Assembly (NCBI GenBank): GCA_963749445.1
Contig: CAVVMJ010000003.1
Coordinates: 715-64,714 of the forward strand
DNA length: 64,000 bases
Direction: 5' to 3'
From: an uncultured bacterium
Lineage (GTDB): Bacteria > Patescibacteriota > Doudnabacteria > UBA920
The notes under the pieces are model-generated. The model searched no databases. It saw only the letters and a program-made list of their open reading frames with translations, and was not told where the DNA came from. Within the stretch, counting starts at the first letter, position 1. The number at the start of each line of letters is the position of its first letter. Shown here one piece after another: positions 11,189 through 50,151 of this stretch. The translations under genes were made by a program, and so were the position numbers.

Positions 11189-11302
11189 GTCATTCCCGCG
11201 AAGGCGAGAATCATTTAATTTGTCATTGCGAGTGCAGCCGAAGCAATCTTTTTATAGATTGCCGCGTCGGCCAGATAAAGCCCTGGCCTCCTCGCAATGA
11301 CA
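11189..11302. repeat. palindromic MITE-like repeat, family A (1.5 copies)
   Basis: gtcattcccgcgaaggcgagaatca followed by gtcattgcgagtgcagccgaagcaatc...gattgccgcgtcggcc...ggcctcctcgcaatgac. Near-identical copies at 11667-11753 and inverted at 55877-55963, with a partial copy at 24715-24770. Confidence 0.8.
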
Positions 11303-11357
11303 CAAAAAAGTAGATTCAGCGTCCATTCAGCGTACCTATCAGCGACAAATCAGCGGC

Positions 11358-11666: not shown

Positions 11667-11753
11667 GTCATTGCGAGTGCAGCCGAAGCAATCTTTATCT
11701 TAGGATGAGATTGCCGCGTCGGCCGGATAAAGCCCCGGCCTCCTCACAATGAC
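11667..11753. repeat. palindromic MITE-like repeat, family A
   Basis: Same sequence as 11223-11301, in direct orientation. Confidence 0.8.
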
Positions 11754-11758
11754 ACTTA

Positions 11759-33395: not shown

Positions 33396-33482
33396 GCCGC
33401 GGTGGTGGAATTGGCATACACGTACGTTTCAGGTACGTATGGGAGCAATCCCGTGAGGGTTCAAGTCCCTCCCGCGGCACCA
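33396..33482 (+). tRNA. tRNA-Leu(CAG), class II with long variable arm
   Basis: Acceptor GCCGCGG/CCGCGGC, anticodon stem TACGT/ACGTA with loop TTCAGGT (anticodon CAG), variable arm GGGAGCAATCCC, T arm GAGGG-TTCAAGT-CCCTC, encoded CCA. Confidence 0.7.
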
Positions 33483-33558
33483 CTTGTGCGGGGCACGCAC
33501 GTTTCAGGTACGTGTGGGAGCAATCCCGTGGAGGTTCGAGTCCTCTCCTGTACACCAA
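33483..33558 (+). other. partial tRNA-Leu-like duplicate (anticodon arm to CCA; no matching 5' acceptor or D arm)
   Basis: gcacgcacgtttcaggtacgtgtgggagcaatcccgtggaggttcgagtcctctcctgtacacca parallels the 3' two-thirds of the preceding tRNA at ~85% identity. Confidence 0.4.
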
Positions 33559-33894: not shown

Positions 33895-35713
33895 ATGACG
33901 AGACGACATTCATCTCACCACCAGCGGCCCCAGGTGCCGCAACCGCCCCCGGGCCACGATCGTTTAGATATGCTTATTAACAAAGCCACGTCTTTGGGCG
34001 GACAAAATATGGCGGCCGCGACCAGCCCCTATACCGCCTCGCGACAAAACCTGCGCGTCATCCCCATGGGCGGGATTGAGGAAGTTGGGGAAAATATGAC
34101 CGTGCTGGAATACGGCAACGACTTGATTGTAATTGATATGGGTCTGGCTTTTCCGGACGATACCATGCCGGGCATTGACTATATTATTCCGGACACCAAA
34201 TGGCTGGAAGAAAACAGGCGGCGCATCCGCGGCGTCATAATTACGCACGGCCACTTGGACCACATTGGCGCCGCACCTTACATTCTGCCCAAGCTCGGCG
34301 ACCCGCCGGTCTACACTATGGCCTTAACCGCGGGCTTCATTAAAAAACGTTTGGAAGAATTTAATTTGCTTGGCCGTTCCAAAATTAACGTTTTAACCAA
34401 AGACGACGTGGTGGCTTTGGGCAATTTCAAAATCCGGTTTTTCCGCATTAACCACAGTATCCCGGACAGCATGGGCCTGTGCATTACCACGCCGGTCGGG
34501 CAGGTCATCTACGTGACAGACTGGAAATTTGACCACACGCCGGCAGACGGCAAGCCCACGGAGTTTGATAAAATCGCCAAATTCGGCGCCGAAGGCGTTC
34601 TGCTTTTAATGTCCGATTCCACCAATGCCATCAAGCCCGGCTACTGCATTTCCGAACGCGAAATCGGCCTGACCATAGACCGCACGTTTAGTGATATTAA
34701 AGGCAGAATAATTTTTGCCAACTTCAGCACCAACATTTCTCGTATCCAGCAGGTGTTTGACGCCGCGGCCAAATACAACCGCAAAGTCATTGTCACGGGA
34801 CGATCATTGGTCAACAACATTGAAATCGCGCTGTCTTTGGGCTACCTAAAAATTCAGCCCAAAATTATCATTAAATCCGAACAGGCCAAAAAATTTCCCG
34901 ACAACCAAATCGTGATTTTGACCACCGGCAGTCAGGGTGAGGAAGCGGCCGGACTGGCGCGCATTGCCCGCGGCGACCACAAAACCGTTAAAATCAAAAA
35001 AGGCGACACGGCCATTATTTCCGCCTCCCCCATTCCGGGCAACGAACGCGCCGTGGCCGTGGTGATGTCTAACTTAACCCGGTTAGGCGCCCACGTAATT
35101 TACAACAAGATGTTGGACATCCACACTTCGGGCCACGCCCACCAGGAAGAATTAAAATTGATGATGGCGCTGACCAAGCCCAAATTCTTTATGCCTATCC
35201 ACGGCGAACACCATATGATCGTCACCCACGCGGACTTGGCCAGAGGCATGGGCATTCCGGACGACCGAATTTTCACGCTGGACAACGGCCAAATTCTGGA
35301 GATGAATTCCGCGCAGCGAAGCCAAAGTCGTGGAAGATCCCAAAATCTCCAGCGGCTACGTGTTTATTGACGGCTTGGGCGTCGGCGACGTGGGCGAAGT
35401 CGTCATCCGCGACCGGCAGGTTATGGCCCAGGACGGAATGTTTGTGATAATAATGACCCTTGATAGGCGCAACGGCAAACTCGTTAACCAGCCGGACATT
35501 ATTTCCCGAGGCTTCATTTATATGAAAGGCAACGACGATTTGATCCGCGAAGTCAAACACGAAGTGCGCAAGCTCTTGGAAAGCAAAGGCAAGGAAAAAC
35601 TGGAACCCAACTGGGCCTACCTGCGCAACGTCATCCGCGATGAGATTGGGGAATACCTGTACCAAAAAACGGAGCGCAGGCCAATGGTATTACCTGTCGT
35701 CATCGAAGTGTAG
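33895..35713 (+). CDS. rnj: ribonuclease J (beta-CASP metallo-beta-lactamase), with an apparent frameshift near 35315
   Basis: ITHGHLDHIGA metallo-beta-lactamase motif, beta-CASP region, and the C-terminal domain in the overlapping ORF 35330..35713. The frames join as ...LEMNS/AEAKVVEDPKISSGYVFIDG. Confidence 0.85.
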
Positions 35714-35830: not shown

Positions 35831-38731
35831 CTACAGCAGCCTACCTAAATGAGAATCTATCAGCCTTTTTGTATCCATCCGGCAAATTTCCATCAAAGCT
35901 CCAAATCCAAGCTGGCTGTTGTTTTTAAAAGTCTTTTCGGACACTACAATATACTCCCATTCTTTCGGTTGATTTTCAATATTTACTTTACCCGCCGTCT
36001 GACACCAGCTTAACGCCGCCTTGGCTTTCAAAGCCACTAAATGTTTTTGATCTTCAACCGCTTCCCTCATTTCATCTTCCGCTTTCGTTTCCACAATATA
36101 CATTTTTTCTTTTGTCTTTACCACAAAATCCGGAAAATAACTCCGCTTTATGCCAAACCTGTCGCGGTAAGCTATGTTTAAGCTGTGTTTTCTTTCCTGC
36201 AATTTCGCAAAACTTTCCACTTCCGCCGAAACATTCAAAATGTTATCAATCAATAATTTCTCAAATCCTTCGCCTTTTCTGGAATATCCTTGTTTGGGAT
36301 AAATACACCTCACGGCCGGCGAAGACAAAGACTCGCGCAGATAAATTTTCAACACTTCGCTCACTTTACCAAAATTTCCTGCCGATATTTCGTATTTTAA
36401 ATCGCCAATCATTTCTACAATTTTATTTCTGACATTAGACACAGCGAAATCAAACACATCTGTGTAATTTAAGACCGTATTATTTTCCGGCAAAGTAAAA
36501 TCAATTTTTCCCCCAAAAAGCCTATTTGTCGCGTACTCGTCCAAAATACCCATAATATCCGCTATCTGGCCGGTAAGCGCCTGAGTTTTCCTGTCCATAG
36601 CCACAGCTTTGGCCGCCTGCCTCAAAAAATAATTATAATCAAAATACTCATTTTCCAATTTCCAGGTTTTTAATTTTCCGCCAGTCAGCGAATAAGTCGT
36701 GGTAACCGAAACTTGGGAAAGCTGTTTTTTCAGCATTCCAAAATCAGTTTTATACTTTGGCAAAGACATCAGGTCAATGCCGGATAAATCAATTTTCGGC
36801 GACTGGTCAAAAACCTGCAAGGGCCATAAAATATCAAACTTTAATATTCTCTCCGGCGTTGCCTCTACCAGAACCATGTCACCTGTCGCGGCGGTTTGCG
36901 TGCTGTCGCCTATGCCAATGGCATAACCCTGTTTTCTTAATTCTTCGTAAAATTGCCTGAACTGCGGATGTTCTACCACAAACAAAAAATCAAAAGAATT
37001 ATTTGGCGGACGATTTTCCCAAATATCTTTAGCCGCCTCATCTTTAAAACTTTTTAGTTCCGGATATCTATATTCCGGAAACATTAGCCGGATGCCGCGG
37101 CCAACAACTTGTTCAAGAAGCAAATTCGCCTCGGCTTTGCGCAACACCACAATTACCGCCACGTTCTGGGTATCAAAACCCTCGCGCAACATAAGCACGC
37201 TCACCACTATACGAATCGGATTCATTTCTTCCGGCTCGTCCAATGTTTCCAGCTTGCGATGATATTGGTTCCATTCTTCTTCGGACATATCCCCTTTTTT
37301 ATCCGAATGGATGGTCAAAATTTGCCCCTTATAGCTTCTGCCCAATTCATCCGTTAAATTTCCCAAATGTTCGTCAATTCTGTTCGCGACATCGTTGCTT
37401 TCCGCCATAACAAACAAAACCGGCTTTTTGTTTAATTGCTTTTCCCTGAATTCATGGGCTATCTGCTCCATTTTCTTGCGGCCAATGTCCAAAAGCAATT
37501 TTTGGCTGACCGAAAGTCCCAAAATTTCCCCGCGCTTATGGTCGCCTTCCGCCTCTCCCCGTTCCGCGCGCATGTCCAACTCTTCCAGTTTCTCTCCTGC
37601 CATAGACTGTCGCTCTTCCAAAAATATCTGCTTGACCAGCATGGCTTTCATCGCTTTTGCCAAATCAAAATCGTATACAATATGGGAAAAGTATTCTTTT
37701 TTCTCGTTGCTTCCGTAAAACGGCGTGGCGGAAAAATCTATCTGCAAAAATACCCCGCGTTCCCGCTTGTGACGTTCGCCAATCCGCTCATAAAGCACGT
37801 CCATAAACCTGCGCCACACCAAATCTTCGCCTTTGGCATTTTTATTGCCGTGAACGTGGTGCGCTTCGTCGTTAAATATTACAAGATCGGGATATTCCGC
37901 CAAGAAATCCGCGATAATTTCCCCGCGCGGCTGTTCTTCCAAATCTTCGCCGGTTAATTGTTCCCAAAGGTTCGCGTTTTCCTTTAGCCTAAATTGCTGC
38001 CAATTGGTAATAAAAACAAATGGCTCATCCGGCGCGGTAAAATTGGCGCGAATCTCGTTTGGCTCCAGCACTAAAAGATTAAAACGATTTTTATACCTCT
38101 CGCCTTCGGGCAAAAACAAACCGCTGTATAAATCCGATTTTGCTTTTTCCCGATTTCCGGTTTTCGCGTCATGCTTGCCTTTAAACATATCTAAAAGCCT
38201 GCTCAATACCTCGTGACCGGGCGCTACCAGCAAAAAATGGCCGGAATATTTTTTATGTTCATTATTGTAAAGCGCGTTAAAATATTGCCATACCAAAAGC
38301 GCGGCCAAAATCCAGGTCTTGCCCGTACCAGTTGCCATCTTCAAACAATATTTGGCAAAAGGAATTTTGCCGACTTCCTCGCTTAAGGCCGCGCTTTGCT
38401 CTAAAACTTCCGGCGCGAATTTTTCATACGCCTCTTTAAGGGTTTTTATGCCTAAAACTTCGTGGCAATAAATAATAGTTTCTATGGCCTGTTTTTGGCA
38501 GTCATAAAATTTTAAACCCTCGTCTTCGCTCCTGTTAAACCAAAAAGATAGCAAATCGTAAGTCGTCTGGCTTGCGCCCTGCCAGCCCATTTGCGCCCAC
38601 GACTTAACTTCACTTTCCAACCCTTTTACCAACGGCAATTCGTTCAACAAATTGTTAGATGTTGATTTCGCCATATCAAATTTCAACCTCCAAAATTTTT
38701 GTCGCGTCATTGCCGAATATGTCAACCACAC
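35831..38731 (-). CDS. res: type III restriction enzyme Res subunit (SF2 helicase + C-terminal PD-(D/E)xK nuclease)
   Basis: Walker A MATGTGKT, DEAH-like FNDEAHH, helicase C-terminal motifs, and C-terminal YFPDFVV...IVETK nuclease motif. Confidence 0.8.
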   Translation of the reverse strand: MWLTYSAMTRQKFWRLKFDMAKSTSNNLLNELPLVKGLESEVKSWAQMGWQGASQTTYDLLSFWFNRSEDEGLKFYDCQKQAIETIIYCHEVLGIKTLKEAYEKFAPEVLEQSAALSEEVGKIPFAKYCLKMATGTGKTWILAALLVWQYFNALYNNEHKKYSGHFLLVAPGHEVLSRLLDMFKGKHDAKTGNREKAKSDLYSGLFLPEGERYKNRFNLLVLEPNEIRANFTAPDEPFVFITNWQQFRLKENANLWEQLTGEDLEEQPRGEIIADFLAEYPDLVIFNDEAHHVHGNKNAKGEDLVWRRFMDVLYERIGERHKRERGVFLQIDFSATPFYGSNEKKEYFSHIVYDFDLAKAMKAMLVKQIFLEERQSMAGEKLEELDMRAERGEAEGDHKRGEILGLSVSQKLLLDIGRKKMEQIAHEFREKQLNKKPVLFVMAESNDVANRIDEHLGNLTDELGRSYKGQILTIHSDKKGDMSEEEWNQYHRKLETLDEPEEMNPIRIVVSVLMLREGFDTQNVAVIVVLRKAEANLLLEQVVGRGIRLMFPEYRYPELKSFKDEAAKDIWENRPPNNSFDFLFVVEHPQFRQFYEELRKQGYAIGIGDSTQTAATGDMVLVEATPERILKFDILWPLQVFDQSPKIDLSGIDLMSLPKYKTDFGMLKKQLSQVSVTTTYSLTGGKLKTWKLENEYFDYNYFLRQAAKAVAMDRKTQALTGQIADIMGILDEYATNRLFGGKIDFTLPENNTVLNYTDVFDFAVSNVRNKIVEMIGDLKYEISAGNFGKVSEVLKIYLRESLSSPAVRCIYPKQGYSRKGEGFEKLLIDNILNVSAEVESFAKLQERKHSLNIAYRDRFGIKRSYFPDFVVKTKEKMYIVETKAEDEMREAVEDQKHLVALKAKAALSWCQTAGKVNIENQPKEWEYIVVSEKTFKNNSQLGFGALMEICRMDTKRLIDSHLGRLL

Positions 38732-40727
38732 GCACCGCGACTTTCTTTTTCCCGCTTAACTTATAAATATTTTCGGCTTCCGTGCTCACCACTTTTGTCT
38801 TTCTGCCGTTGCCGCGCAGTTCCTGATAAAGAGATTTAAAAGTATGCCCGTCGTAATCCCAATCCACCGCCCAATAGTCTATAAGCACAGCAAAATTATT
38901 TTTTATCAACAACATAAGTTCAGTGCGCGACTCGTCCGCCTTTTTACCGCTGCCCAAAGGAAAATCTTCTACAATATAATTTTCTATTTTAATTTTCAGT
39001 TTTAACCCTTCAATTTCCGGTTTGGCAATTTTTAAATATGGCTTATTGAAAAACACCACTTTACCAACAAGCGGCTCCAAGTCGTCCTCGGTTTTTGCCT
39101 GTTTTAGATACTCGTAAATATCCGGCGGAATTTGTTTTGGGATAATTTCCAATTTAGTTTTTGCCGCTTTTTTTCTTTCGTTCAACAGTTCATCAAAATT
39201 GTATTCGTAATCCCAGCCCAAAAGAGTCAAATTCGCGAAACCTCCGCCCTGTAAATTTTCCGCTTCCTTGGCCAATTCTTCCGCCTTATGCGCCGCAATC
39301 GGCCTGTCCGGATAGCCGCAATACACCAATTCCATTTTGCCGTCCTCGGATTTTTTTACGCCCAAATCCTTGCGGTTTTCCATAATTTCCGCGCCGTAAA
39401 GCTTTAACACGATTTTTTGCATCTCATAAATCCGCCCTCCTCCCAAATAAATCATCTCCCTCTGATAATTCCCAATATTCTCCACCAAAAACGGTTTTGA
39501 TTTTTGTTCCACCAGTCTGCCACGCGCGACTTGAATACCAACTTTCCCTAGCTCACATCCAATCCATCGACGGTTTAAATTTTCAGCTACTGATATCGTT
39601 GTTCCTGAACCCAAGAAAAAATCTGCAACGATTCCATTTTCAGGGCACGACGCTTCAATTATTCTTTGCAAAAGTTTTTTTGGTTTCTGAGTTTGATATT
39701 CTATATATTCGGGCATTGCTGGATAAACTTGCGTAATCCTTGCCTCATCACTATCTATCCACGACCATACATCATCCATCTTTCTTCCTTCGTCAGCATA
39801 ATAACGATTTGCGTTATTGTTGCCGCTCATTCGATATTTCCTACCCTCTTCATCTGTAAACGGATAAATGGATAAGTCCTTAACCGGAACACGCACAGGG
39901 TTAAAATATCTGTTATCTCCTTTTGAATAACGAAAAATCATGTTGTGTTTTCGAGCAAAGTCTTTTTCAGGAGCGGTCCCAGCTTGAAAATGCCAAATTA
40001 TCTGATTCCTAAAATTTTCCTCTCCAAAAACCTCATCCATCATCACTTTTACATAATGCCCAACGTGCCAGTCCAAATGCGCGTAAATACTGCCATCTTC
40101 GGCCAAAAGGCGTTTCATTAGTTGCAAACGCGGGTAAAGCATATCCAAATAGCTGTCTGTGCCGCCAGCCCAGGTGTCTTTGTAGGCCAAGCGTTCTATT
40201 ACGCTCGGCTCTTTTACCAATTCCAAATCCGCCGATGTTTCAGAAACATCAGCCAGTTTGATTTTGTGCGAATAGTCCGCCTTGCTGTCAAACGGCGGAT
40301 CAATGTAAATTAAATTTATTTTGCCTTCGTACCCCTGGTTTAACAGTGCCTGCATTGCCAATAAATTGTCGCCCCAAATTAGGCGGTTCATTTTTTGCTT
40401 GTCCAATTCTTCTTCCCCGATTTTGCCGTCTGTAAAAGACAAAGGCAACTGGCCTCTGTGCTCGGGATTTGGCACCACCACTTCCGCGGTCTGGAATTCA
40501 ATATCCTTGGGGTTAGGCGCGCGCTTGGGTTTGGTATCCCAAACCAGCCGGGCCGAATCCCTTTTCCTGTTAGTATTCATTTGTTGTAGCTGAGGATTTA
40601 GTGCAGCTGGAAAACAAAAAGGGCCTCCCAACCGCGAGCAACACCTTTCGATGTTACTGCGTGCTTGCGCACGCACCTCAGCTACGAGTGCGGTTAAGAG
40701 ACCGTCCTTATGTAGCTGAGGTTTCAA
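38676..40727 (-). CDS. mod: type III R-M Mod subunit (adenine-specific DNA methyltransferase)
   Basis: INLIYIDPPFDSKADY (motif IV) and C-terminal FFLGSGTTISVAENLNRRWIGCEL (motif I). Overlaps res by 56 nt. Confidence 0.85.
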   Translation of the reverse strand: MKPQLHKDGLLTALVAEVRAQARSNIERCCSRLGGPFCFPAALNPQLQQMNTNRKRDSARLVWDTKPKRAPNPKDIEFQTAEVVVPNPEHRGQLPLSFTDGKIGEEELDKQKMNRLIWGDNLLAMQALLNQGYEGKINLIYIDPPFDSKADYSHKIKLADVSETSADLELVKEPSVIERLAYKDTWAGGTDSYLDMLYPRLQLMKRLLAEDGSIYAHLDWHVGHYVKVMMDEVFGEENFRNQIIWHFQAGTAPEKDFARKHNMIFRYSKGDNRYFNPVRVPVKDLSIYPFTDEEGRKYRMSGNNNANRYYADEGRKMDDVWSWIDSDEARITQVYPAMPEYIEYQTQKPKKLLQRIIEASCPENGIVADFFLGSGTTISVAENLNRRWIGCELGKVGIQVARGRLVEQKSKPFLVENIGNYQREMIYLGGGRIYEMQKIVLKLYGAEIMENRKDLGVKKSEDGKMELVYCGYPDRPIAAHKAEELAKEAENLQGGGFANLTLLGWDYEYNFDELLNERKKAAKTKLEIIPKQIPPDIYEYLKQAKTEDDLEPLVGKVVFFNKPYLKIAKPEIEGLKLKIKIENYIVEDFPLGSGKKADESRTELMLLIKNNFAVLIDYWAVDWDYDGHTFKSLYQELRGNGRKTKVVSTEAENIYKLSGKKKVAVRVVDIFGNDATKILEVEI

Positions 40728-40894
40728 CCATGTCCCGCCGAAGGCGGGGTTTAGGCTTTACCCGGGGTTTTACGCCCGGGGCAATATTCTCCGCCGGAGG
40801 CGGATCCGCCTTTGGTGGAAATTGTATTTTAATTATACTACAATTAAGCCAAAAATAAAACCGCCGGTTTTAAGCAAATTTTTTGCTTGCGCAG

Positions 40895-40923
40895 TTGACA
40901 AGTATATAACTACAAGTTATACT
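40895..40923 (+). promoter_or_regulatory. sigma70-like promoter TTGACA-N17-TATACT
   Basis: Upstream of the antitoxin/toxin pair at 40950. Confidence 0.5.
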
Positions 40924-40949
40924 TTGGTTATACTATTAAAATTAAACCT

Positions 40950-41231
40950 ATGAACAGCCAGGTTATTTTTAAAATCGACAAAACTTTAAAACAAAGGGCT
41001 ATGAAGAGAGCCAAGCTGGAAGGCGTGCCTTTGGCTTTTGTCCTTAAAATGGCCACCCAAGCCTATGCCGACCGTAAAATGGATGTTGCCGTGGTCGCGG
41101 AGCCCAAGTTCAACTACAAAACCGACAAAGAGGTTAGACAGGCTTTAAAAGACATAAAGCGGGGGAAAAACCTATCCCCGGGCTTTACTAACGCCAAAGA
41201 TGCCATAGAGTACCTGGATACTCTAACATGA
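40950..41231 (+). CDS. RelB/DinJ-like antitoxin
   Basis: 93-aa protein with an RHH-like N-terminus. The toxin gene overlaps its stop by 4 nt. Confidence 0.55.
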   Translation: MNSQVIFKIDKTLKQRAMKRAKLEGVPLAFVLKMATQAYADRKMDVAVVAEPKFNYKTDKEVRQALKDIKRGKNLSPGFTNAKDAIEYLDTLT

Positions 41232-41488
41232 CAACGGTCTTTTACCACAAAACCTTCCGGAAAAAATATCCAAAAATGCCCAATTTTATTCAGCAAGCTT
41301 TCAAGGAACGGCTGAACATATTTTTGAACGACCCCTATCACCCGCTTTTGCACAATCACGATGTCAATAAAGCTTACCCTGGTTGCCAAAGCATAAATTT
41401 AAGCGGCGACTACCGAGCGATTTTTGAGCCGGGGAAAGGCTTTGTAAAATTTATTACTATTGGAAGCCACTCCGAACTTTACGGCTAA
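41228..41488 (+). CDS. RelE/YafQ-family mRNA interferase toxin
   Basis: LHNHDVNKAYPGCQSINLSGDYRAIFEPGKGFVKFITIGSHSELY matches the YafQ/RelE signature (…L.G.….R..HI..D.LLIY…..L.L.R.GTHS.L…). Confidence 0.7.
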   Translation: MTTVFYHKTFRKKYPKMPNFIQQAFKERLNIFLNDPYHPLLHNHDVNKAYPGCQSINLSGDYRAIFEPGKGFVKFITIGSHSELYG

Positions 41489-41631: not shown

Positions 41632-42711
41632 ATGACAAAAGAAATCATCGTCTCCGGAACCAGGGTTAGCGGCAAACTGCATATTGGCAATTATTTGGGC
41701 GCGTTTAGGCAGTGGCTGGATTTGCAGGCAAAGGATGATAACCAATGTTACTTTTTTATTGCGGATTTGCATGGGATGACCACGCCGTTTGAGCCAAAAG
41801 AACTATCCGCTAACACGCTTGATGTAGCGGCCACGTATCTTGCCGCCGGAATTGACCCGAACAAGTCGGTTTTCTTTTTGCAAAACCACATTTTGGAGCA
41901 CGCGACTTTAGCGTGGATTTTTAATTGTCTAACTCCTTTGGGCGAACTTTATCGGATGACACAGTTTAAGGAAAAAACAGGGATTAAAACTATCGAGTCA
42001 GATATACAAACAACTGAATCTGGTACAGATGATCCCCGTCATAAAAATTTAATTGGGAATCGACTTGAAAAAGAAATTTCAAAACGGCAGACCTCAGTCA
42101 ACGCCGGATTGCTCACCTACCCGGCTCTGATGGCCGCGGACATTTTAATGTACAAAGCCACGGCTGTGCCAGTGGGCGACGACCAGGTCCAGCACGTGGA
42201 GCTCACGCGCGTGGTGGCGCGCAAATTCAACAACCGCTTTGGCCAAGTCTTTCCGGAACCCAAGACGTATTTGAACAAACCGTTAAGGATAATGTCGCTT
42301 ACTGACCCAACCAAAAAAATGAGCAAAACCGCAGATGAAGCCATTGGGCTGGACGACAGCCTGGAAGAAATGCAGCGTAAGCTCAAAAAGGCCGTTACCG
42401 CATCCGACCCCAGCGGCAAAACCAGCCCGGGCGTGGAAAACCTGTTTTTGCTTATGGAAAACTTTAGCCCGGACAAAACCAAAAAATACTTCGCGGACAA
42501 ACAAGTCCAGGGGCTTTTGCAATACAGCGAGCTCAAAGAAACGCTGGCCGTTGACATTTACAACCACTTTGCCGCATTCAGGGAAAAGAAAAAAGAACTC
42601 TTAGCCAAACCCGAATATCTTGCCGAAGTCCTTGGCGACGGCGCAAGCCGTGCCCGCCAAGTCGCCCAAAAAACTTTGCAGGAAGTCAAAGCAAAAATCG
42701 GATTATTATAG
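41632..42711 (+). CDS. trpS: tryptophan--tRNA ligase
   Basis: Class I HIGH-like HIGNYLGA and KMSKT motifs; TrpS-length with one internal insertion. Confidence 0.85.
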   Translation: MTKEIIVSGTRVSGKLHIGNYLGAFRQWLDLQAKDDNQCYFFIADLHGMTTPFEPKELSANTLDVAATYLAAGIDPNKSVFFLQNHILEHATLAWIFNCLTPLGELYRMTQFKEKTGIKTIESDIQTTESGTDDPRHKNLIGNRLEKEISKRQTSVNAGLLTYPALMAADILMYKATAVPVGDDQVQHVELTRVVARKFNNRFGQVFPEPKTYLNKPLRIMSLTDPTKKMSKTADEAIGLDDSLEEMQRKLKKAVTASDPSGKTSPGVENLFLLMENFSPDKTKKYFADKQVQGLLQYSELKETLAVDIYNHFAAFREKKKELLAKPEYLAEVLGDGASRARQVAQKTLQEVKAKIGLL

Positions 42712-42723
42712 AATGCCTTGACA

Positions 42724-42756
42724 AAGACCGAAATAACAATCAGATCGGTCTTTTTT
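42724..42756 (+). terminator. rho-independent terminator
   Basis: agaccga...tcggtct hairpin plus TTTTTT. Confidence 0.6.
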
Positions 42757-42811
42757 GATGCATTTAAAAATAAATAGTCTGCTATAATGGAAGCACGAGA
42801 GGAGGACTCCC

Positions 42812-43186
42812 GTGCTAAAAATTCAGTATAAACGACAGGGGTGCGTATTGTTTACGTTCCGCTCAGAAGAAGATAGCCAAAGGGCTTTCCAAGCCTGCAA
42901 GCGGGCTTTCTCCGACGGAAGCGAATTTTACGGTTATCATCTCAAACAGGGCGCCCCTTACCAACCGTGGTGGCTAGCAGACCACTACACGCTCATCTTC
43001 GGCACCCTAGAGGTACCGATTTTGACACACGGACCGGAAATTACCCGAATCAGGGTATCTTCCTACCCGCCGATGTTTATCGGCAATGCGCTACTCGACC
43101 GCGATATGGGTATCATAGATCGCTGGCTAATTGACGAATTCACTCTTCGGAGTTGGTCGTCCCAGTCATTCTCTGCCGCGGCTTGA
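42812..43186 (+). CDS. small hypothetical protein, paralog 1 of 3 (GTG start; SD sequestered in hairpin)
   Basis: Shares the core [Y/F]xΦΦF[G/A][T/F]...THGxE[I/V]xR and an N-terminal ΦxFxxSxEDxxRA block with the 43378 and 43889 ORFs. Has its own TATAAT box, GGAGGA SD and terminator. Confidence 0.5.
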   Translation: MLKIQYKRQGCVLFTFRSEEDSQRAFQACKRAFSDGSEFYGYHLKQGAPYQPWWLADHYTLIFGTLEVPILTHGPEITRIRVSSYPPMFIGNALLDRDMGIIDRWLIDEFTLRSWSSQSFSAAA

Positions 43187-43377
43187 AACAAACACCTTTT
43201 CTTTCTGCCCGCTAACGCCTGGCAGAGAAACCGGCGGACGCCTACCTCGCGTCCGCCTTCGCCTTTTACCAAACTTTTTATTCAAAAGGCCAACCAAACG
43301 GTTGGGCTTTTTTAGTTATCCACCAATTGCCATTAAAAAATATTGCTTATATACTGGGAATATAAAGGAGGTGCCAC

Positions 43378-43752
43378 ATGCCGAGTTGTGTGGCCTTTTT
43401 TGAAAGCAAGGCCGACGCAAGTCGGGCCTATCACGTTCTGTTCTTAAAGATCGTTCGGCGGCATCCGTTTCTTGACCTGGAGCCGCTGTACATCTGGTCA
43501 GGCGCGGAGAATCGCCCTTACCAAAGCGAACACAACGATGAGTACTTCATCGTTTTCGCCTTTACGTCGGCAAGCCCCCGGCATTTCAAGGAAACTGGGT
43601 TTATTGGATATGACATTACCGAAATGTCGTCTGCCCAAGCTTGGGACTTAGTCACCAAGCACGGGCGGAGCGCCCTCACATCGGTGGTTAAACGCCCCAT
43701 CGCTGCCGCCGATGCCATCGCTCCCGACAGCAGCAGGAGGACCGCCGCATGA
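43378..43752 (+). CDS. small hypothetical protein, paralog 2 of 3
   Basis: As above; TATACT box, AGGAGG SD, ATG start, downstream hairpin terminator. Confidence 0.5.
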   Translation: MPSCVAFFESKADASRAYHVLFLKIVRRHPFLDLEPLYIWSGAENRPYQSEHNDEYFIVFAFTSASPRHFKETGFIGYDITEMSSAQAWDLVTKHGRSALTSVVKRPIAAADAIAPDSSRRTAA

Positions 43753-43888
43753 CCAAACACCCATACGGCAGCGGGCGGACATCAATATTTCGGATGTTCG
43801 CGCGCTGCCGTCGCTGTTTTATATATTTGTGCTTTTTTTATACTTTCTATATACTTGAGTCAAATCTACGTTCCACAGGAGGTTCAAC

Positions 43889-44230
43889 TTGCCGTACACT
43901 TATATGGTGGTGTGCGCATCGAAAGAAGAATGGCTCGCTAGAAAGAAAGGGTTCGAGGCTGCCTGTAACGGCAGCGGCGAAACGTTCATGGATGTCAAAC
44001 CCATAGCTGCAGAATTCACAGACGGCCAATCGACCAAACCGTATGCCCGAAGGTGGGGCAACAAGCACTTCATTCTTTTTGCCACCCACGAGCCCGTCAC
44101 CACCCATGGAGTTGAAGTCCATCGCTTCAATGACATGTCGACCGGCGGGTTCGTTGACGCCCTCGGCCATTACTCATGGGACGACCTGATGAGCCAGGTT
44201 TGTTCCACACACAACCATGCCACCGTCTGA
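43889..44230 (+). CDS. small hypothetical protein, paralog 3 of 3 (TTG start)
   Basis: As above; AGGAGG SD 7 nt before the TTG start; two hairpin terminators downstream. Confidence 0.45.
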   Translation: MPYTYMVVCASKEEWLARKKGFEAACNGSGETFMDVKPIAAEFTDGQSTKPYARRWGNKHFILFATHEPVTTHGVEVHRFNDMSTGGFVDALGHYSWDDLMSQVCSTHNHATV

Positions 44231-44382
44231 CTTCGGCAACACATCGCCAACGCGCGGCGGACGACCACCCATCGTCCGCCGTGCATCATTTTTAAAACGC
44301 CCAAACAGGGCGTTTAATATTGTTTGATGTCTTTATGAAATTATTTTGGGAGGGTTATAAACCCTCCCCTACATTACAATAA

Positions 44383-45177
44383 TTATTTCAGCAAGCCTTT
44401 AATAATTTTTTTTGTCTCTTCCGGGCCCTTGACCTGAATGTAATCCACTCCGGTTTTGACCACCGCGTAATCGTTGCCGCCGGGGACAATCGCATCGCCA
44501 ATAAATAACATTTTGCCAATAGGCACGCCCAAATGGTTTTTTATCTGCCGCAAACCGTAAGCCTTGTCTATCCCCTTTTTGGTAACGTCAATGGATGTAA
44601 ACCCCGCGGCGCGTACTTCCAAATTTGGCAAATATTTTGCCGCGAGTTTAGCGATTTTCATTTTCAAGGACTTGTTTTCTTTAAGCCATTGCTCTTTAAG
44701 CGCCACGCCTTTTTTGCCTAAAATCGCAACCACGTCCTGGCCTAAAAAGGACAGCGTAACTTGCGTACCGCGGTCTTCTATAATCTGGCCGTAAGTTTTT
44801 TTGGGATGATGGTAGCCGATTTCCTTAAACACGCGTTGGAAAGTTTGCTTGATTTTCGCGCGTTCGCTTTTTGTCAGTTGATGGGAATAAATTTGTTTCC
44901 AGCCATTATGGTACCGATAAAAGGACGTTGAGGTTGTGGGAAATAAAAATAACTTGGATAACAATTCCTTTGGCGCCAAAAGCGCGTCTAAAAATTGCAG
45001 CTTAAACAAATCGTACTTGCCGCCGCCAATAACCGCGACTTTTTTGGCTTCCAAAAGCCGGGCAAACAGCCCCGACATCTCCCTGTCCATAACCGACTTG
45101 GTCGGCGTCAGCGTGCCGTCCAAATCAAAGACGATTAGGCTTTTAAACTTTAAGTTTTTAGGATTGATAATCTTCAT
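44383..45177 (-). CDS. HAD-IIB hydrolase, phosphomannomutase (PMM)-like
   Basis: LIVFDLDGTLT (motif I), KKVAVIGGGKYDL and LFIGDAIVPGGNDYAV parallel eukaryotic-type PMM motifs. Confidence 0.65.
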   Translation of the reverse strand: MKIINPKNLKFKSLIVFDLDGTLTPTKSVMDREMSGLFARLLEAKKVAVIGGGKYDLFKLQFLDALLAPKELLSKLFLFPTTSTSFYRYHNGWKQIYSHQLTKSERAKIKQTFQRVFKEIGYHHPKKTYGQIIEDRGTQVTLSFLGQDVVAILGKKGVALKEQWLKENKSLKMKIAKLAAKYLPNLEVRAAGFTSIDVTKKGIDKAYGLRQIKNHLGVPIGKMLFIGDAIVPGGNDYAVVKTGVDYIQVKGPEETKKIIKGLLK

Positions 45178-45889
45178 AATTATATTTTAGCACAAACAAA
45201 AAAAAGAAGCAGGCGTCCCGGTACACTCACAGGACGCCCGCGATAGGCAACTCCCACCAAAGGATGCCTTAGTTGGTAACTTCCGCCGCTCGAGCCTGCA
45301 AGGCCCGGGGATTGCGTTCGCCGCTCGACGCAACGAGCGGCAGAATAGCCGGTGCCCTGTTGGGCTTGCCATCAAGGGCACGGCGGGCGACTTCCAGGGG
45401 TGCTTGACCCCTGGCTCCTCCTTCTTGAATGAAAGCCCCTCTCTGGGCGGCGACGAACCTGCCAGACCTGCCGTAGTTCTTCATCAGTTTCTCCATGTTG
45501 TAAGAAAACAACGCTACCGATATGGCAATCGGAGGCACCGCTTCCTTACAAAAATAATACTCTTATATATGCCATAAGTCAAACTAATCTGTTATAATAA
45601 ACATGAACAGGAGGCCCTATGAGTATCCTGAAAACACCTCCTTTCCTGCAGTAGCGTTTCCACGACACGATTTAGCCTCCGCAGAGAGGCCGCTGTTTAA
45701 TCCGCTACTTGCGGGAAAGGAGAGTGATCCAGCGCAGATATACCTTTTGCCGATATTTTTTCCGGCGAGGCGCCATTGTTTTTCTTTTGGCGCCCTTTTC
45801 TTTTGCTCTTGGCTAAACCGGCTATCTGATTTATACTACCCACGATGACTTTTCCTATTCTCTTGTCTCTAATCTCTTTTCACTAACAT

Positions 45890-47052
45890 ATGTCTTTTCA
45901 AATCGGAATCGTCGGGCTGCCAAATGTAGGAAAATCAACTCTTTTTAACGCCATTACCAAAAGCAAGGTGGAGGCGGCGAATTACCCGTTTGCCACCATT
46001 AACCCCAATGTGGGCGTAGTGGCTGTGCCGGACGAACGCTTGGCCAAACTGGCCGCGCAGGAAAAAGCGAAAAAATTGTGCCCACGGCTATTGAGTTTGT
46101 AGATATTGCCGGATTGGTCAAAGGCGCCAGCAAAGGCGAAGGCTTGGGCAACCAATTTTTAAGCCATATCCGCTCCGTTGACGCGATTTTGGAAGTGGTG
46201 AGATTTTTTGAAAATAAGGACATTATCCATGTGCAGGGCAACGTTGACCCCAAGCGCGATATGGAAACCGTTGCCATAGAACTGCAATTGGCGGATTTGC
46301 AAAACGTGGAAAATAGATTATCATCCGTCGCCCGCCAGGCCAAAAGCGGCGAACGCGACGCGATAATCAAAAAAACTGTGCTTGATAAATATCGGATGGC
46401 GCTTGAGGCCGGAGCTATGGCCAACACCGTGCATTTGACCGATGAAGAAAAAGAGCACAGTAAGGATATTGAGCTTTTGACCAACAAACCGATTATGTTT
46501 GTGGCAAATGATAAATTTGATTTGGATAAAAAATCTTTTTCATCTGCCATTCCGAGCCCTGGGATATCGGGCGAGGAATCTGTTAAAACATCTGCTAGTG
46601 ATAACAGATCCCTCCACTCGCCCTCGGATGCACTCGGGCTCGGTCGGGATGGCAAATTTATTACCATCGATGCACAACTAGAAAGCGAACTCGCGGAGCT
46701 TTCCGATGACGAACGCGCGCAGTACCTTAAAGAACTCGGCCTGCCGGAATCGGGTTTGGATAAAATCATCAAAGCCGCGTATAAAACTTTAGGGCTGATT
46801 ACCTTTATTACGGCCGGGCCAAAAGAAAGTAAGGCCTGGACCTGCCCCGCCGGTACCAAAGCTCCGCAGGCCGCGGGAATAATCCATACCGATTTTGAAA
46901 AAGGCTTTATCCGCGCCGAAGTCATCCAATGGAATAAATTATTGGAAGCCGGCGGCTACGGCCCGGCGCGGGATAAGGGTTGGCTAAGGGTTGAGGGAAA
47001 AGAATATGTGATTGCGGATGGGGATGTTGTGCACTTTAGATTTAATGTATAA
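45890..47052 (+). CDS. ychF: ribosome-binding ATPase YchF (Obg family), with an apparent frameshift at ~46085 and an in-frame repeat insertion
   Basis: [16 protein letters not shown] and FATINPNVG in the first ORF; [24 protein letters not shown] through the C-terminal TGS domain in the second. The frameshift falls in an A6 run. Insertion at ~46523-46660. Confidence 0.9.
46523..46660. repeat. composite palindromic repeat (family B) inserted in frame in ychF
   Basis: cattccgagcc...ggcgaggaatc and cagatccctccactcgccctcggatgcactcgggctcggtcgggatgg. Family B copies also at 50051-50092 and fused with family A at 24715-24770. Confidence 0.7.
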
Positions 47053-47847: not shown

Positions 47848-48843
47848 ATGAAAATCTATAAAGATGTTTTTAGCAAAATAGCTAGTGCGGAAAACCTGTT
47901 TGACTCATGGCAGGCATTCCGCAAGGGAAAGACTAAGCGCAGCGACGTAATGGCTTTTGAATTTTCATTGGAGCAAAATATTTTTGATTTGCGCGATGAA
48001 TTAAAATCAAAAAGATACAAACATGCGCCCTATTCTTCCTTTTTTATTCAAGATCCCAAACAAAGGAACATTCATAAAGCCAGTGTCCGCGACCGGCTTA
48101 TCCACCATGCCATTTTCGCCGTTCTGAACCCCATTTTTGAAGCGGCCTTTATTCCCAATTCCTTTTCCTGTCAAAAGGGCAAAGGCACGCATAAGGGAGT
48201 GGAGGCGCTTAAAAATATATTGCGCGAAGCCAGCAAAAATAACACCAAACCATGCTTTGTGCTTAAATGTGATATTAGACAGTTTTTTCATTCGGTTGAC
48301 CATGATATTTTGATTTCAATTATTGGGCAAAAGATCAAAGACCTTGATGCCATGCGGCTAATCCGAGAGATTGTGGAGAGCTTCCCTAATGGCGTGCCGA
48401 TAGGCAATTTGACCAGCCAACTGTTTGCCAATCTTTATTTAAATGAGCTCGACAGGTTTGTTAAGCACAAACTGAAAGTTCCTTTTTATGTTCGCTATAC
48501 CGATGATTTTGTTCTGGTTTCAGATTCGCCTGAAAAACTTCTATCCTTGCTGGAATGGATAAAGCTGTTTTTGCGGGAGCGGCTCAAGCTTGAGATCCAC
48601 CCGCACAAACTAACTTTACGAAAATACCATCAGGGGATTGATTTTCTTGGTTATATTCAGTTTCCCAAATTTAGGATTTTGAGGAACAAAACTAAGCAAA
48701 GAATTTTAAGGAAATCGGCCAAGGGCTTAAACGAGCAGTCCTTGCAATCGTATTTAGGGGTTCTGTCTCATTGTAATGCCTACAAGCTTGGCGAGAGTTT
48801 AAAGAACGAGTTTTGGCTGCAAAGTGAGGAGGGGAAAAAGTAA
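47848..48843 (+). CDS. DGR reverse transcriptase
   Basis: RT motifs 1-7 with YTDDFVLV (motif 5) and the DGR-diagnostic IGNLTSQLFANLYL (motif 4). 331 aa, RT domain only. Confidence 0.9.
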   Translation: MKIYKDVFSKIASAENLFDSWQAFRKGKTKRSDVMAFEFSLEQNIFDLRDELKSKRYKHAPYSSFFIQDPKQRNIHKASVRDRLIHHAIFAVLNPIFEAAFIPNSFSCQKGKGTHKGVEALKNILREASKNNTKPCFVLKCDIRQFFHSVDHDILISIIGQKIKDLDAMRLIREIVESFPNGVPIGNLTSQLFANLYLNELDRFVKHKLKVPFYVRYTDDFVLVSDSPEKLLSLLEWIKLFLRERLKLEIHPHKLTLRKYHQGIDFLGYIQFPKFRILRNKTKQRILRKSAKGLNEQSLQSYLGVLSHCNAYKLGESLKNEFWLQSEEGKK

Positions 48844-48924
48844 AAAAAATTTCGGGAAGGCTTCGCCAGAGGCGAAGCCTTGCTTTCAAGGCCTCAAAGC
48901 CTAAAGCTTCAGAGTTCCGAAGCT

Positions 48925-49779
48925 TCAAGCGATCAAAGCACGATGGGCGGACTTCCGGGCAACGCAGACGAACAAGTTGCCGCTGCCGCCGTAGGACGGA
49001 TGAGCGCCGTAGACGAAGAGCCCAGCCGAGTCGAGCCAGACGCAGACGCGATACCCGTGGGAGTCGAGAATGCGGCCCCAGTGATAGACGTTGTCGAACA
49101 GCCGCTGACCGGTGGCCTTCTGGTGAGCGAGCACCGCCTGGGAGAACACGCGCTCGTCGGCGCGTTCGTAGTCTTCGCCCAATGCCACGATGTTGTCTTC
49201 CTGCTGTTGCCAGTTGGTGCGATTCCACCGCGGGGTCATGTCGAGCAGGTAGTAGCCGGCCTCCGGCTTGCTGTCGCCGACTTCCTTGTACTGCGGCTTC
49301 AGGAACCAGTCGACGCCCGGGTAATAGTTGGGCGGGTGGCTCTTGTCGGTACCGAGCGTGGAGTGCTGGCTGCGGAACGACGCTGTCGAAGCATAAGCCA
49401 GCATCCATTTGTGCGTCCCGGCCTTGTTCTGGTAGGCACACTCCTGAATCTGGGCCATGTTCGGGCAAACCACGGTCTGTCCCTTGGGGGACGGTTGGGC
49501 GAAGGTGGTCGAGTTCTGCTCGTGCGTCACCAGACTGGTCTGGCCGAGCAGGGTGAGCGCACCAGCGAGGTCGAATGCCGGAGTCGTCAGCCGGATTGCG
49601 AGCCGGTGAACGAATTGCTGATACTCTTCCGGATAGACTCCGCTGCTATGGATTGCCAAAAGTTCGGCGTGAAGGAAACTTCCCTTCTCCAGTGCGGCTT
49701 CGGTTGCGTTGCGCATGTCTCGGATTTGACCCGGGGTTGCCGGATCGTTGCTCTTAGACGTGAGTAATGGGGTTCCCAT
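48925..49779 (-). CDS. DGR target protein (FGE-sulfatase/C-type-lectin-like fold) with C-terminal variable repeat
   Basis: C-terminus ...LDSHGYRVCVWLDSAGLFVYGAHPSYGGSGNLFVCVARKS corresponds to TR-encoded ...LDSNGYRVCVKLNSDGLNVNNDHPSYGDNDNLYVCVARKS, with TR AAC/AAT codons diversified. GC-rich relative to its neighbours. Confidence 0.85.
   Translation of the reverse strand: MGTPLLTSKSNDPATPGQIRDMRNATEAALEKGSFLHAELLAIHSSGVYPEEYQQFVHRLAIRLTTPAFDLAGALTLLGQTSLVTHEQNSTTFAQPSPKGQTVVCPNMAQIQECAYQNKAGTHKWMLAYASTASFRSQHSTLGTDKSHPPNYYPGVDWFLKPQYKEVGDSKPEAGYYLLDMTPRWNRTNWQQQEDNIVALGEDYERADERVFSQAVLAHQKATGQRLFDNVYHWGRILDSHGYRVCVWLDSAGLFVYGAHPSYGGSGNLFVCVARKSAHRALIA
48950..49070 (-). repeat. DGR variable repeat (VR)
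   Basis: See TR. The shared ggaagtc at the 3' end is the candidate IMH boundary. Confidence 0.85.
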
Positions 49780-50151
49780 TGTCAGTATCCTCTTATTCAG
49801 TTGTCAAAGCTTCCTTGGGCCGCAAGGACACGGTCTCATCTTTTTCAAAACAAGACAAGCACTTTATTATCCTTCGATTAGTGAAGGATTGTAAAGCGCA
49901 AGTCTCGTTATTTTTGAGACCTTACATTATGGCACTTTTTTTATCTCCTGTCAATATCGACAAAAAAACCATCAAATGCTATAATTTCAACACTTATCCA
50001 TTTCGAGCGAGTCAGACGAGCCGAGAAATCTGTTTAATTAAAATCAAAAACAGATCCCTCCACTCCTCGGATGCACTCGTCGGTCGGGATGGAATCTAAT
50101 TTAATACACTAATCATATTCCCCCTATGGGGGATAGAAAGGATTCCTTTCT

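Follow-up and report, generated by a model that had tools for sequence, protein, structure and literature searches.

Three tandem small orphan genes beside trpS in a Doudnabacteria-like genome, with regulatory flanks more conserved than their protein bodies

Integron cassettes are promoterless open reading frames (ORFs) under a common Pc promoter, an arrangement that does not describe the three genes reported here (g1, g2 and g3); nor do these resemble type II toxin-antitoxin pairs, whose two genes are co-transcribed and usually overlap, since they lie 136-191 nt apart and match no family. FourU elements, found in RNA thermometers, hold the Shine-Dalgarno (SD) sequence paired with four U residues. 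Among degradation signals, ClpXP recognizes ssrA and related natural degrons mainly by a terminal Ala-Ala carboxylate (PMC7652416). Patescibacteria genomes are small and nonetheless retain many lineage-specific small genes, and the locus described here has an unusual signature, in which conservation is seen in the regulatory shell and in a C-terminal Ala-Ala but not in the protein body.

The DNA analyzed (the window) is a 64,000-nt stretch from the genome of an uncultivated, Doudnabacteria-like member of the Patescibacteria. The three genes occupy a 1.67-kb gap, here called the slot, bounded by two convergent genes: trpS, encoding tryptophanyl-tRNA synthetase (41632-42711, + strand; PF00579 on an identical protein), forms the upstream border, and a PMM-like HAD hydrolase gene (44383-45177, − strand; PF08282 and PF03332, with synteny) forms the downstream border. 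A computed hairpin followed by a T-run seen in the sequence terminates trpS (42718-42758, + strand). The first-pass annotation had recommended comparing the synteny of trpS and the PMM-like gene in relatives, where we found the gene order kept. The genes around the slot are trpS, the PMM-like gene, ychF and a toxin-antitoxin pair, with no integrase among them. GC and GC3 of g1, g2 and g3 fall inside the host range, and a foreign origin by composition was rejected on these values. A type III restriction-modification system, a RelB/YafQ-like pair and a reverse transcriptase were also observed near the slot. A link between the reverse transcriptase, 3.6 kb downstream, and a diversity-generating retroelement was considered and rejected: no template/variable repeat pair was found, and two population samples were 100% identical. 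The opposite strand also carries long ORFs, for example at 43847-44170.

All three ORFs lie on the + strand where the first-pass annotation had placed them, with the three kinds of start codon it had listed; every feature given for them below is on that strand. g1 (42812-43186; ORF list, BLASTP paralogy) starts with GTG and encodes 124 aa ending in SFSAAA. Its extended -10 box, TGcTATAAT (42780-42788), sits inside a 49-nt block with 86% identity to a second species (locus L082), and the end of its SD, GGAGGA, lies 5 nt ahead of GTG. The 3′ region of g1 (43202-43313) holds three hairpins, at 43202-43228, 43233-43257 and 43284-43311, the last followed by a T-run; the middle one corresponds to GGCGGACG...CGTCCGCC. 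g2 (43378-43752; ORF list, BLASTP paralogy) starts with ATG and encodes 124 aa ending in RRTAA, downstream of a promoter, TTGCCA-17-TATACT (43327-43355), that agrees with 10 of 12 consensus positions, and of an SD, GGAGG, 6 nt ahead of ATG. Its terminator (43765-43839) comprises a hairpin with 19-bp arms (43765-43811) and subsequent T-runs, and the hairpin resembles that 3′ of a slot gene in a relative (L085). g3 (43889-44230) starts with TTG and encodes 113 aa ending in HNHATV; its promoter, TTGTGC-17-TATACT (43827-43855), is inside a 44-nt block 91% identical in L082, and its SD, GGAGG, 6 nt ahead of TTG, is kept in L082 together with the TTG itself. The sequence and its fold placed the g3 terminator at 44252-44315, with a hairpin at 44252-44284 (GGCGGACG...CGTCCGCC) and a second at 44295-44315 that is probably common to g3 and the convergent gene.

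Each gene thus has its own -10 box, GGAGG site and GC-rich hairpin terminators (z of the 3′ hairpins, -5.5 to -5.7), and the 136-191-nt spacers contain both terminators and promoters. This layout suggests that g1, g2 and g3 are transcribed separately; the earlier proposal of separate promoter-to-terminator units is backed by the g1 and g3 promoter blocks kept in the second species. The genes had likewise been proposed to be divergent tandem paralogs, and their similarity is weak yet above chance by BLASTP, profile ranks and DNA traces. BLASTP gave E values of 4e-5 for g1-g3, 3e-4 for g2-g3 and 2e-3 for g1-g2. When a profile of g3 and its ortholog was compared with all of the window's 792 six-frame ORFs, g2 ranked second (E 0.09) and g1 third (E 0.9), and the core motif of g3 is still present in both. 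At the DNA level, the ribosome-binding site and start of g2 and g3 share 83% identity across 18 nt, and the terminator hairpins of g1 and g3 share 81% across 26 nt. Since neither g1 nor g2 has an ortholog, the case for their being coding is built on SD spacing, the length of the ORFs and weak paralogy with g3.

A word-indexed search of 5.8 billion proteins with the three-sequence alignment returned self matches only, and an exhaustive profile search of 1.84 billion representatives recovered, besides self, one true ortholog, P0005, which matches g3 at 43% identity (E 5e-27). Another candidate, P0004, was rejected as a homolog, being a 2846-aa repeat protein whose score consists of 11 sub-threshold repeats, each of at most 7.5 bits. 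The family is present in just two species among the proteins searched, and a metagenome scan yielded only another copy of the locus, from the same species as P0005. Pfam-A hmmscan at E up to 10 assigned no family to g1, g2 or g3, and an NCBIfam scan gave no match; a clear housekeeping-family match, the outcome that the first-pass annotation had set against its own reading, was found in neither database. Furthermore, a PDB sequence profile search reached a best E of 0.68, PADLOC returned 0 families, the best PHROG match had E 0.17, BFVD gave none with E <=0.001, viral contigs gave none, and cmscan with Rfam over 42650-45950 (E up to 1) found nothing. The unit contains neither a partner toxin gene nor an effector gene.

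The second species is represented by L082 and the identical L087, in which the gene order is trpS, a g1-position gene and the g3 ortholog, with g2 missing. Compared with the window, identity in L082 is 86% for the g1 promoter and 5′UTR, 91% for the g3 promoter and 80% for the trpS coding tail. For g3, dN was 0.44 against a dS of 2.65 (trpS, 0.12 against 0.82), and purifying selection was seen for g3, the sole copy of the three. The g1-position proteins of the two species are unalignable (dN ~0.9), their coding sequence having diverged at about the synonymous rate between conserved flanks. The coding part diverges so fast that a recognizable ortholog is found in the nearest species only, and for g3 only.

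In relatives, the slot is empty or occupied by other small orphan genes, and the number of slot genes among close relatives ranges from 0 to 3. Because the slot is empty in some close relatives, the module is dispensable; these empty slots, together with the confinement of the family to two species, bear out the earlier description of an accessory, fast-evolving family. The terminator hairpin GGCGGNCG...CGNCCGCC reappears 3′ of the small orphan genes in the same slot of relatives. Within the window, the hairpin motif occurs at g1 and g3 only (expected 0), and in the related loci it is confined to these slots. The middle hairpin of g1 and that of a slot gene in L086 are identical at 24 of 27 positions, compared with 49% identity at trpS third codon positions; the terminator hairpins compared are 100% paired, with compensatory changes in 2 of 9 pairs. 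Since relatives conserve its non-coding shell, the module is a long-standing resident of the slot in this clade. Neither BLASTP nor hmmsearch nor hhalign gave a significant match between the window family and the small slot ORFs of relatives, and a search with a second slot family found its own members only. Because profile methods do not detect any relationship of the window family to the other slot families, cassettes may have been replaced rather than diverged in place. Two contigs that are 100% identical along 1188 nt part directly after a g3-type terminator.

Folding around the g1 start, a check that the first-pass annotation had called for, found the predicted hairpin at 42792-42816 (-13.7 kcal/mol, z -3.6 to -4.2). 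It is also kept in L082, where its counterpart folds at -12.3 kcal/mol with one compensatory change (A-U to G-C) and two wobble-compatible changes. The hairpin had been thought to bury both the SD and the GTG; the GTG is indeed paired, as is the SD's first GAG, but the GAGGA core lies inside the 5-nt loop. By the usual 7-nt spacing from the -10 box, the transcript likely starts at ~42795; because this position falls inside the 5′ arm, the hairpin may be shortened, and folding from there leaves just -5.8 kcal/mol. A role as a 5′-terminal stabilizer fits the g1 hairpin equally well. Moreover, such a structure is not restricted to g1, as had been supposed: g2 has a start-region hairpin too (43365-43401; -15.4 kcal/mol, z -2.6), in which CCUUUUU from codons 6-8 base-pairs with the SD (AAGGAGG). 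A start-region hairpin at g3 was dropped as non-significant in both species.

Across 16 related loci, an Ala-Ala C-terminus was found in 10 of 323 crude ORFs, comprising six trpS-slot genes, one gene of the neighboring PMM-ychF slot and three rpsR. Slot genes are enriched in this ending, which elsewhere in these genomes is nearly restricted to rpsR. The Ala endings sit on Ala-rich or predicted-disordered tails; g1 ends in AAA, g2 in TAA and g3 in ATV, with ATA in the g3 ortholog. None of ClpX, ClpP, Lon and FtsH was found among the window genes scanned. Ala-rich tails could also result simply from 3′ sequence that is GC-rich. As to the protein bodies, the AlphaFold2 model of g3, based on an alignment of four sequences, reached pLDDT 75 and pTM 0.70 (tail 106-113, pLDDT <50) and predicts a small cytoplasmic alpha+beta protein with the order b-a-b-b-b-a-a and a disordered tail; structure searches gave generic or non-significant matches only. 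The g1 model has the same order of secondary-structure elements, at a low-confidence pLDDT of 47, and was too poor for use.

Collectively, we favor, with slightly more confidence than doubt, the reading that these genes, as three copies of one module, encode small proteins that are dispensable, duplicated and fast-evolving and that probably do not last long in the cell. Such a module would run from a promoter and strong SD through an ORF of ~115-125 codons with an Ala-rich tail to a stop, an A/C-rich spacer and a CGGCGG...CCGCCG hairpin terminator, and would have been copied whole by tandem duplication. Translation initiation of g1 and g2 may be damped by the hairpins, which sequester the start codon in g1 and the SD in g2, and the Ala-Ala ends of both may act as ssrA-like degrons, in which case the proteins would be strongly made and quickly removed. 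Strong synthesis, quick removal and fast sequence turnover would suit small protein-binding modulators in an evolving interaction better than an enzyme or housekeeping factor. If both the degrons and the hairpin controls are real, the proteins would be deliberately short-lived partners in a fast-evolving interaction, possibly with host or phage, and shell motifs could find members that protein homology searches overlook; otherwise the array is simply one more tandem set of orphans. An extension that we consider unlikely is that the locus stands for a new Patescibacteria small-gene class, in which the expression shell (promoter, SD/start hairpin, Ala-Ala-stop, A/C-rich spacer and sequence-conserved CGGCGG hairpin) is selected and the protein body is near-neutral or diversifying; its members might serve as short-lived arms-race decoys or inhibitors, or bind their own conserved 3′ hairpin.

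The slot could alternatively be a recombination hotspot whose cargo is mobile or can be exchanged, for example genes of immunity, anti-defense or other conflicts, with the conserved hairpins or flanks as recombination sites and with the g1-position genes of the two species as different cassettes rather than diverged orthologs. Its content of 0 to 3 genes in close relatives would fit, as would unrelated g1-position proteins between conserved flanks, the contigs that diverge right after a g3-type terminator following 1188 identical nt, and the proximity of the type III restriction-modification system, the RelB/YafQ-like pair and the reverse transcriptase. However, the genes have host-like GC and GC3, match nothing in PADLOC, PHROGs, BFVD or viral contigs, adjoin no recombinase and, unlike integron cassettes, have a promoter each; promoter and terminator are fixed at one site across species, fitting vertical descent, and no cassette common to distant genomes appeared among 5.8 billion proteins. 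We regard cargo as unlikely.

It is also conceivable, if quite unlikely, that the g1 and g2 protein sequences are near neutral: the ORFs would be young or in decay and would stay open either by chance or because the transcript or its translation is selected, for example as a regulatory RNA or decoy substrate, rather than a folded product. The confident predicted fold of g3 and its purifying selection, the retention of its core motif in g1 and g2, and ORFs of 113-124 codons with optimal SD spacing argue against this, whereas near-synonymous coding divergence at the g1 position beside conserved flanks, the pLDDT of the g1 model (47), the lack of homologs and tails rich in Ala, Ser, Arg and Pro, as translated GC-rich DNA would give, point toward it. 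That the three are chance ORFs in GC-rich, hairpin-rich intergenic DNA, and not genes, is highly improbable: long ORFs on the opposite strand (43847-44170) and the absence of an ortholog for two of the three genes are outweighed by a g3 ortholog that keeps the SD and TTG start with dN < dS, consensus SDs 5-6 nt ahead of the start in all three, conserved promoters and mutual paralogy. We give just as little credence to a dimeric alpha+beta barrel (ABM/Dabb) with a housekeeping or stress role, the fold and the stress role being first-pass guesses. Neither PF03992 nor PF07876 matched, nor did any Pfam (E up to 10) or NCBIfam family; the modeled order b-a-b-b-b-a-a differs from the ferredoxin-like b-a-b-b-a-b of ABM/Dabb, the slot is empty in close relatives, and a stress role found no support.

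As for the closest known systems, the modeled g3 fold is nearest to generic two-layer alpha+beta sandwiches (ACT, RRM, CutA, ABM/Dabb and eIF4E-like sheets). The start-region hairpins recall translational hairpins that occlude an SD or a start codon, fourU RNA thermometers among them, g1 pairing its GUG and g2 its AAGGAGG with the U-run CCUUUUU, and a second species retains the g1 hairpin, with one pair changed in a compensatory way; they differ from these in the lack of an Rfam match, the position of the g2 U-run within the coding region, the g1 SD core in the loop and the possible truncation of the g1 hairpin at the transcript start. The Ala-Ala or Ala-x-Ala endings of g1, g2 and most slot proteins of relatives would be analogous to ssrA-like ClpXP degrons, although the slot tails are gene-encoded rather than tmRNA-added and g3 ends in ATV. 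With integron cassettes, which pair an ORF with an attC hairpin, the array shares tandem short ORFs, each with an imperfect-palindrome hairpin behind it that is better conserved than the coding sequence; in contrast, the slot ORFs have their own promoter and SD, U-runs follow their hairpins as at intrinsic terminators, no integrase lies adjacent, and the array is inherited at one site between conserved housekeeping genes. Taxonomically restricted islet genes resemble it in variable occupancy, tandem duplication and the lack of homologs beyond the clade; the slot genes differ from these in a shell conserved far above the coding part and in a C-terminal signature common to their proteins.

Three small ORFs lie on the plus strand between trpS (41632-42711, +), the upstream neighbor of g1, and a convergent gene for a PMM-like HAD hydrolase (44383-45177, minus strand), at the positions and with the three different start codons reported in the first-pass annotation: g1 (42812-43186, GTG, 124 aa), g2 (43378-43752, ATG, 124 aa) and g3 (43889-44230, TTG, 113 aa). 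The -10 box, strong SD and hairpin terminator that it had assigned to each gene were likewise all found. Promoter-like elements precede g1 (TGcTATAAT, 42780-42788, +), g2 (TTGCCA-17-TATACT, 43327-43355, +) and g3 (TTGTGC-17-TATACT, 43827-43855, +), a GGAGG-type site is located 5-6 nt upstream of each start codon, and very stable, GC-rich hairpins with T-runs (z about -5.5) follow each gene. Terminator-like sites were enriched in this 2-kb region (9 versus 2.8 expected), and we infer that the genes are expressed monocistronically. An ATGA-started ORF (43749-44006), which overlaps the end of g2 and crosses the terminator and the g3 promoter, is probably not real. The 3′ end of g2 (43735-43752, AGGAGGACCGCCGCATGA) resembles the ribosome-binding region of g1 (AGGAGGACTCCCGTG) and may be left over from a module junction.

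Pairwise BLASTP related g1 to g3 (E 4e-5), g2 to g3 (3e-4) and g1 to g2 (2e-3), and the similarity among the three is weak yet non-random. The trio has a common core, PY..(W)..(H/Y)(F/Y).(I/L)(I/V)F(A/G)(T/F), and THG.E(I/V).R is present in g1 and g3. As an unbiased test of paralogy, the 792 six-frame ORFs that the window contains were all searched with a profile built from g3 and its orthologue; g2 ranked second and g1 third, albeit with E-values of only 0.09 and 0.9. The DNA retains traces as well: g2 and g3 share 83% identity across 18 nt spanning the SD and start, and g1 and g3 share 81% across 26 nt of their main terminator hairpins. Whole modules, rather than coding sequences alone, were therefore duplicated; the window contains no further copy. 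Collectively, these sequence comparisons establish the genes as divergent tandem paralogues with a common core, as originally proposed.

The proteins had no match in Pfam, NCBIfam, PHROGs, PADLOC or PDB sequences, no relative was found among the viral contigs searched, and a word-indexed search of 5.8 billion proteins matched the trio only to itself. Two more matches came from an exhaustive HMM search covering 1.84 billion cluster representatives. P0005 (108 aa) is, by sequence, a true g3 orthologue (43% identity, E 5e-27); P0004, a 2846-aa repeat protein, was treated as spurious because its score is the sum over 11 repeats, each of 7.5 bits or less. Within these searches, the trio is an orphan family. 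The AlphaFold2 model of g3, built on a four-sequence alignment (mean pLDDT 75, pTM 0.70), predicts b1 (3-9), a1 (12-26), b2-b4 (52-80), two helices (85-104) and a disordered tail; the g1 model was poor (pLDDT 47), with a matching order of elements. The predicted g3 structure makes the alpha+beta fold guessed earlier reasonable, while membership of the ABM/Dabb group was unsupported, and Foldseek of the models against PDB and BFVD returned nothing significant.

The source organism is an uncultivated Patescibacteria bacterium near Doudnabacteria, whose closest TrpS among species representatives is 67% identical. P0005 is encoded on a 1.35-kb ENA contig of a second species (L082), which is 100% identical over 1188 nt to a JGI contig (L087). 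Both carry, in order, the trpS 3′ end, a terminator, a promoter and 5′UTR, a 97-codon GTG ORF, hairpins, a promoter, the TTG-started g3 orthologue and a GGCGGACG...CGTCCGCC hairpin. Identity to the window reaches 86% across the 49-nt g1 promoter/5′UTR block and 91% across the 44-nt g3 promoter block, in both cases above the trpS coding tail (80%). Purifying selection acts on g3 (dN 0.44, with dS saturated at 2.65; trpS tail, dN 0.12 and dS 0.82). The protein at the g1 position of L082 had no detectable similarity to g1 (dN about 0.9), and neither contig has a g2 counterpart. The TTG start and SD of g3 are kept in L082, which favors the 113-aa protein over the 108-aa database version, P0003. 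Directly after the g3-type terminator, the two contigs, which derive from different metagenomes, part (L082 1189-1351, L087 1213-1359): L087 runs on into the PMM-like gene, whereas L082 enters a different convergent gene with the C-terminus ...FEEKFPEKTV, indicating that the slot borders vary even within one species.

The g1 start-region hairpin (42792-42816; -13.7 kcal/mol, z -3.6 to -4.2), described in the first-pass annotation as burying both SD and start, does exist and pairs the GUG start; of the SD, however, only the first GAG is paired, and GAGGA lies in the loop. Its equivalent in L082 folds at -12.3 kcal/mol despite differing arms and second codon, with one compensatory A-U to G-C substitution alongside two from G-C to G-U, which is suggestive of conservation between these two sequences. 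The conserved -10 box predicts a transcript start at about 42795, within the 5′ arm, which would reduce the hairpin to only -5.8 kcal/mol; a start at 42792-42793 would place the full hairpin at the mRNA 5′ end, fitting stabilization as well as translational damping. A g2 hairpin overlooked earlier (43365-43401; -15.4 kcal/mol, z -2.6) pairs AAGGAGG with CCUUUUU of codons 6-8. No significant start-region hairpin was found for g3 in either species, and Rfam gave no match in the region, even at an E of 1. Hairpin control of g1 and g2 may operate. The overall observation of the first-pass annotation is confirmed, with its hairpin description corrected.

The trpS-to-PMM order is conserved in relatives, while the content of the intervening slot, 83 nt to 1.2 kb long, varies. 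The slot is empty in some close relatives (TrpS 71% identical); others have one or two small orphans there, encoded on the same strand. Several of these form small families of their own, such as that of the related loci L083, L085 and L086 (E 2e-14 to 6e-6), which matched only itself among 5.8 billion proteins; no kinship of the relatives' slot orphans with g1-g3 was detectable by BLASTP, hmmsearch or hhalign. A second variable slot separates the PMM/PGM gene from ychF (window 45178-45889; L002 13837-14332; L084 2485-2834; L085 7729-8756; L086 7826-8546). The window version is a GC-rich gap of 713 nt that lacks a convincing ORF and has no Rfam match; in relatives the slot holds small minus-strand orphan genes, one of which (L085 8391-8756) terminates in Ala-Ala and another of which is followed by a GGCGGCCG-type hairpin (L002 13914-13940). 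The adjacent window ychF (45890-47052, +) consists of two ORFs that overlap (45890-46102 and 46078-47052), the result of a frameshift or else of a sequencing error; L002 has one undivided ORF of 361 aa.

The motif GGCGGNCG-N(5-14)-CGNCCGCC occurs in the window only in the g1 and g3 terminators (0 expected), and among Patescibacteria loci it is restricted to the trpS-PMM slot and the neighboring PGM/PMM-ychF slot; the remaining matches come from GC-rich genomes that are unrelated. The g1 hairpin and that 3′ of the L086 slot gene are identical at 24 of 27 positions, loop included, against 49% at trpS third codon positions between the two genomes. Pairing of the nine-pair stem is 100% across an alignment of five sequences, with compensatory changes in two of the nine pairs. 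The conservation of hairpins and promoters, set against protein divergence, indicates that constraint is stronger on the non-coding shell than on the protein.

The best-supported interpretation is a dispensable, lineage-restricted small-gene module, duplicated twice in the source genome, with a conserved regulatory shell around a very fast-evolving protein. The main rival, cassette exchange at a hotspot, would account for the unrelated proteins at the g1 position. The GC (0.52-0.56) and GC3 (0.57-0.65) of g1-g3 fall in the range spanned by other window genes and thus carry no mark of recent import. The trio constitutes a new orphan family, unusual in combining a shell that is conserved with cargo that diverges.

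Accessory elements lie nearby. One block (35831-41488) lies in the interval from RNase J (33895-35370) to trpS, in which L084 and L086 carry no more than one small ORF. It contains a type III restriction-modification pair, namely a res subunit whose N-terminal endonuclease domain is TnsA-like (35831-38731, minus strand) and an N6/N4 methylase (38676-40727, minus strand), and a RelB/YafQ-like pair (93 and 86 aa) also present in L085. The methylase gene has a LOOT RNA at its 5′ end (RF03000; 40640-40757, minus strand; 57 bits, gathering score 46). A reverse transcriptase (47848-48843; RVT_1; generic PADLOC RT model, 3e-49) is followed by a 61-63% GC stretch (47848-49780 region) in which both strands contain long ORFs that lack a Pfam match; no template/variable repeat pair was found at this gene, and a retroelement link to the trio was rejected, as no such repeat joins it to g1-g3. 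The window TrpS (359 aa, versus 323-347 aa in the closest relatives) carries a lineage-specific insertion. Elsewhere, 50 nt of a tRNA (33396-33479; 33419-33468) are repeated 75 nt downstream (33494-33543, 90% identity), and a 48-nt direct repeat recurs 452 nt apart (11256-11303 and 11708-11755, 94% identity).

Slot genes share a 3′ architecture of an Ala-rich C-terminus (often Ala-Ala), stop, A/C-rich spacer and CGGCGG...CCGCCG hairpin. Of 323 ORFs called crudely in the window and 15 related loci, 10 end in Ala-Ala: six trpS-slot genes, g1 and g2 included, one PMM-ychF slot gene and three encoding ribosomal protein S18. None of the other window ORFs of at least 100 aa (about 50) does so, and g3 ends in ATV, not Ala-Ala. 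The Ala codons could come from the GC-rich 3′ sequence for other reasons, and no AAA+ protease gene lies within the window. The proteins may serve as modulators that bind other proteins in an interaction that evolves rapidly. In the ssrA tag and related natural degrons, the free Ala-Ala carboxylate is the key element that ClpXP recognizes (PMC7652416). By analogy with these, which g1, g2 and other slot proteins resemble in their C-terminal Ala-Ala, the slot proteins would be short-lived, with Ala-Ala-dependent turnover.
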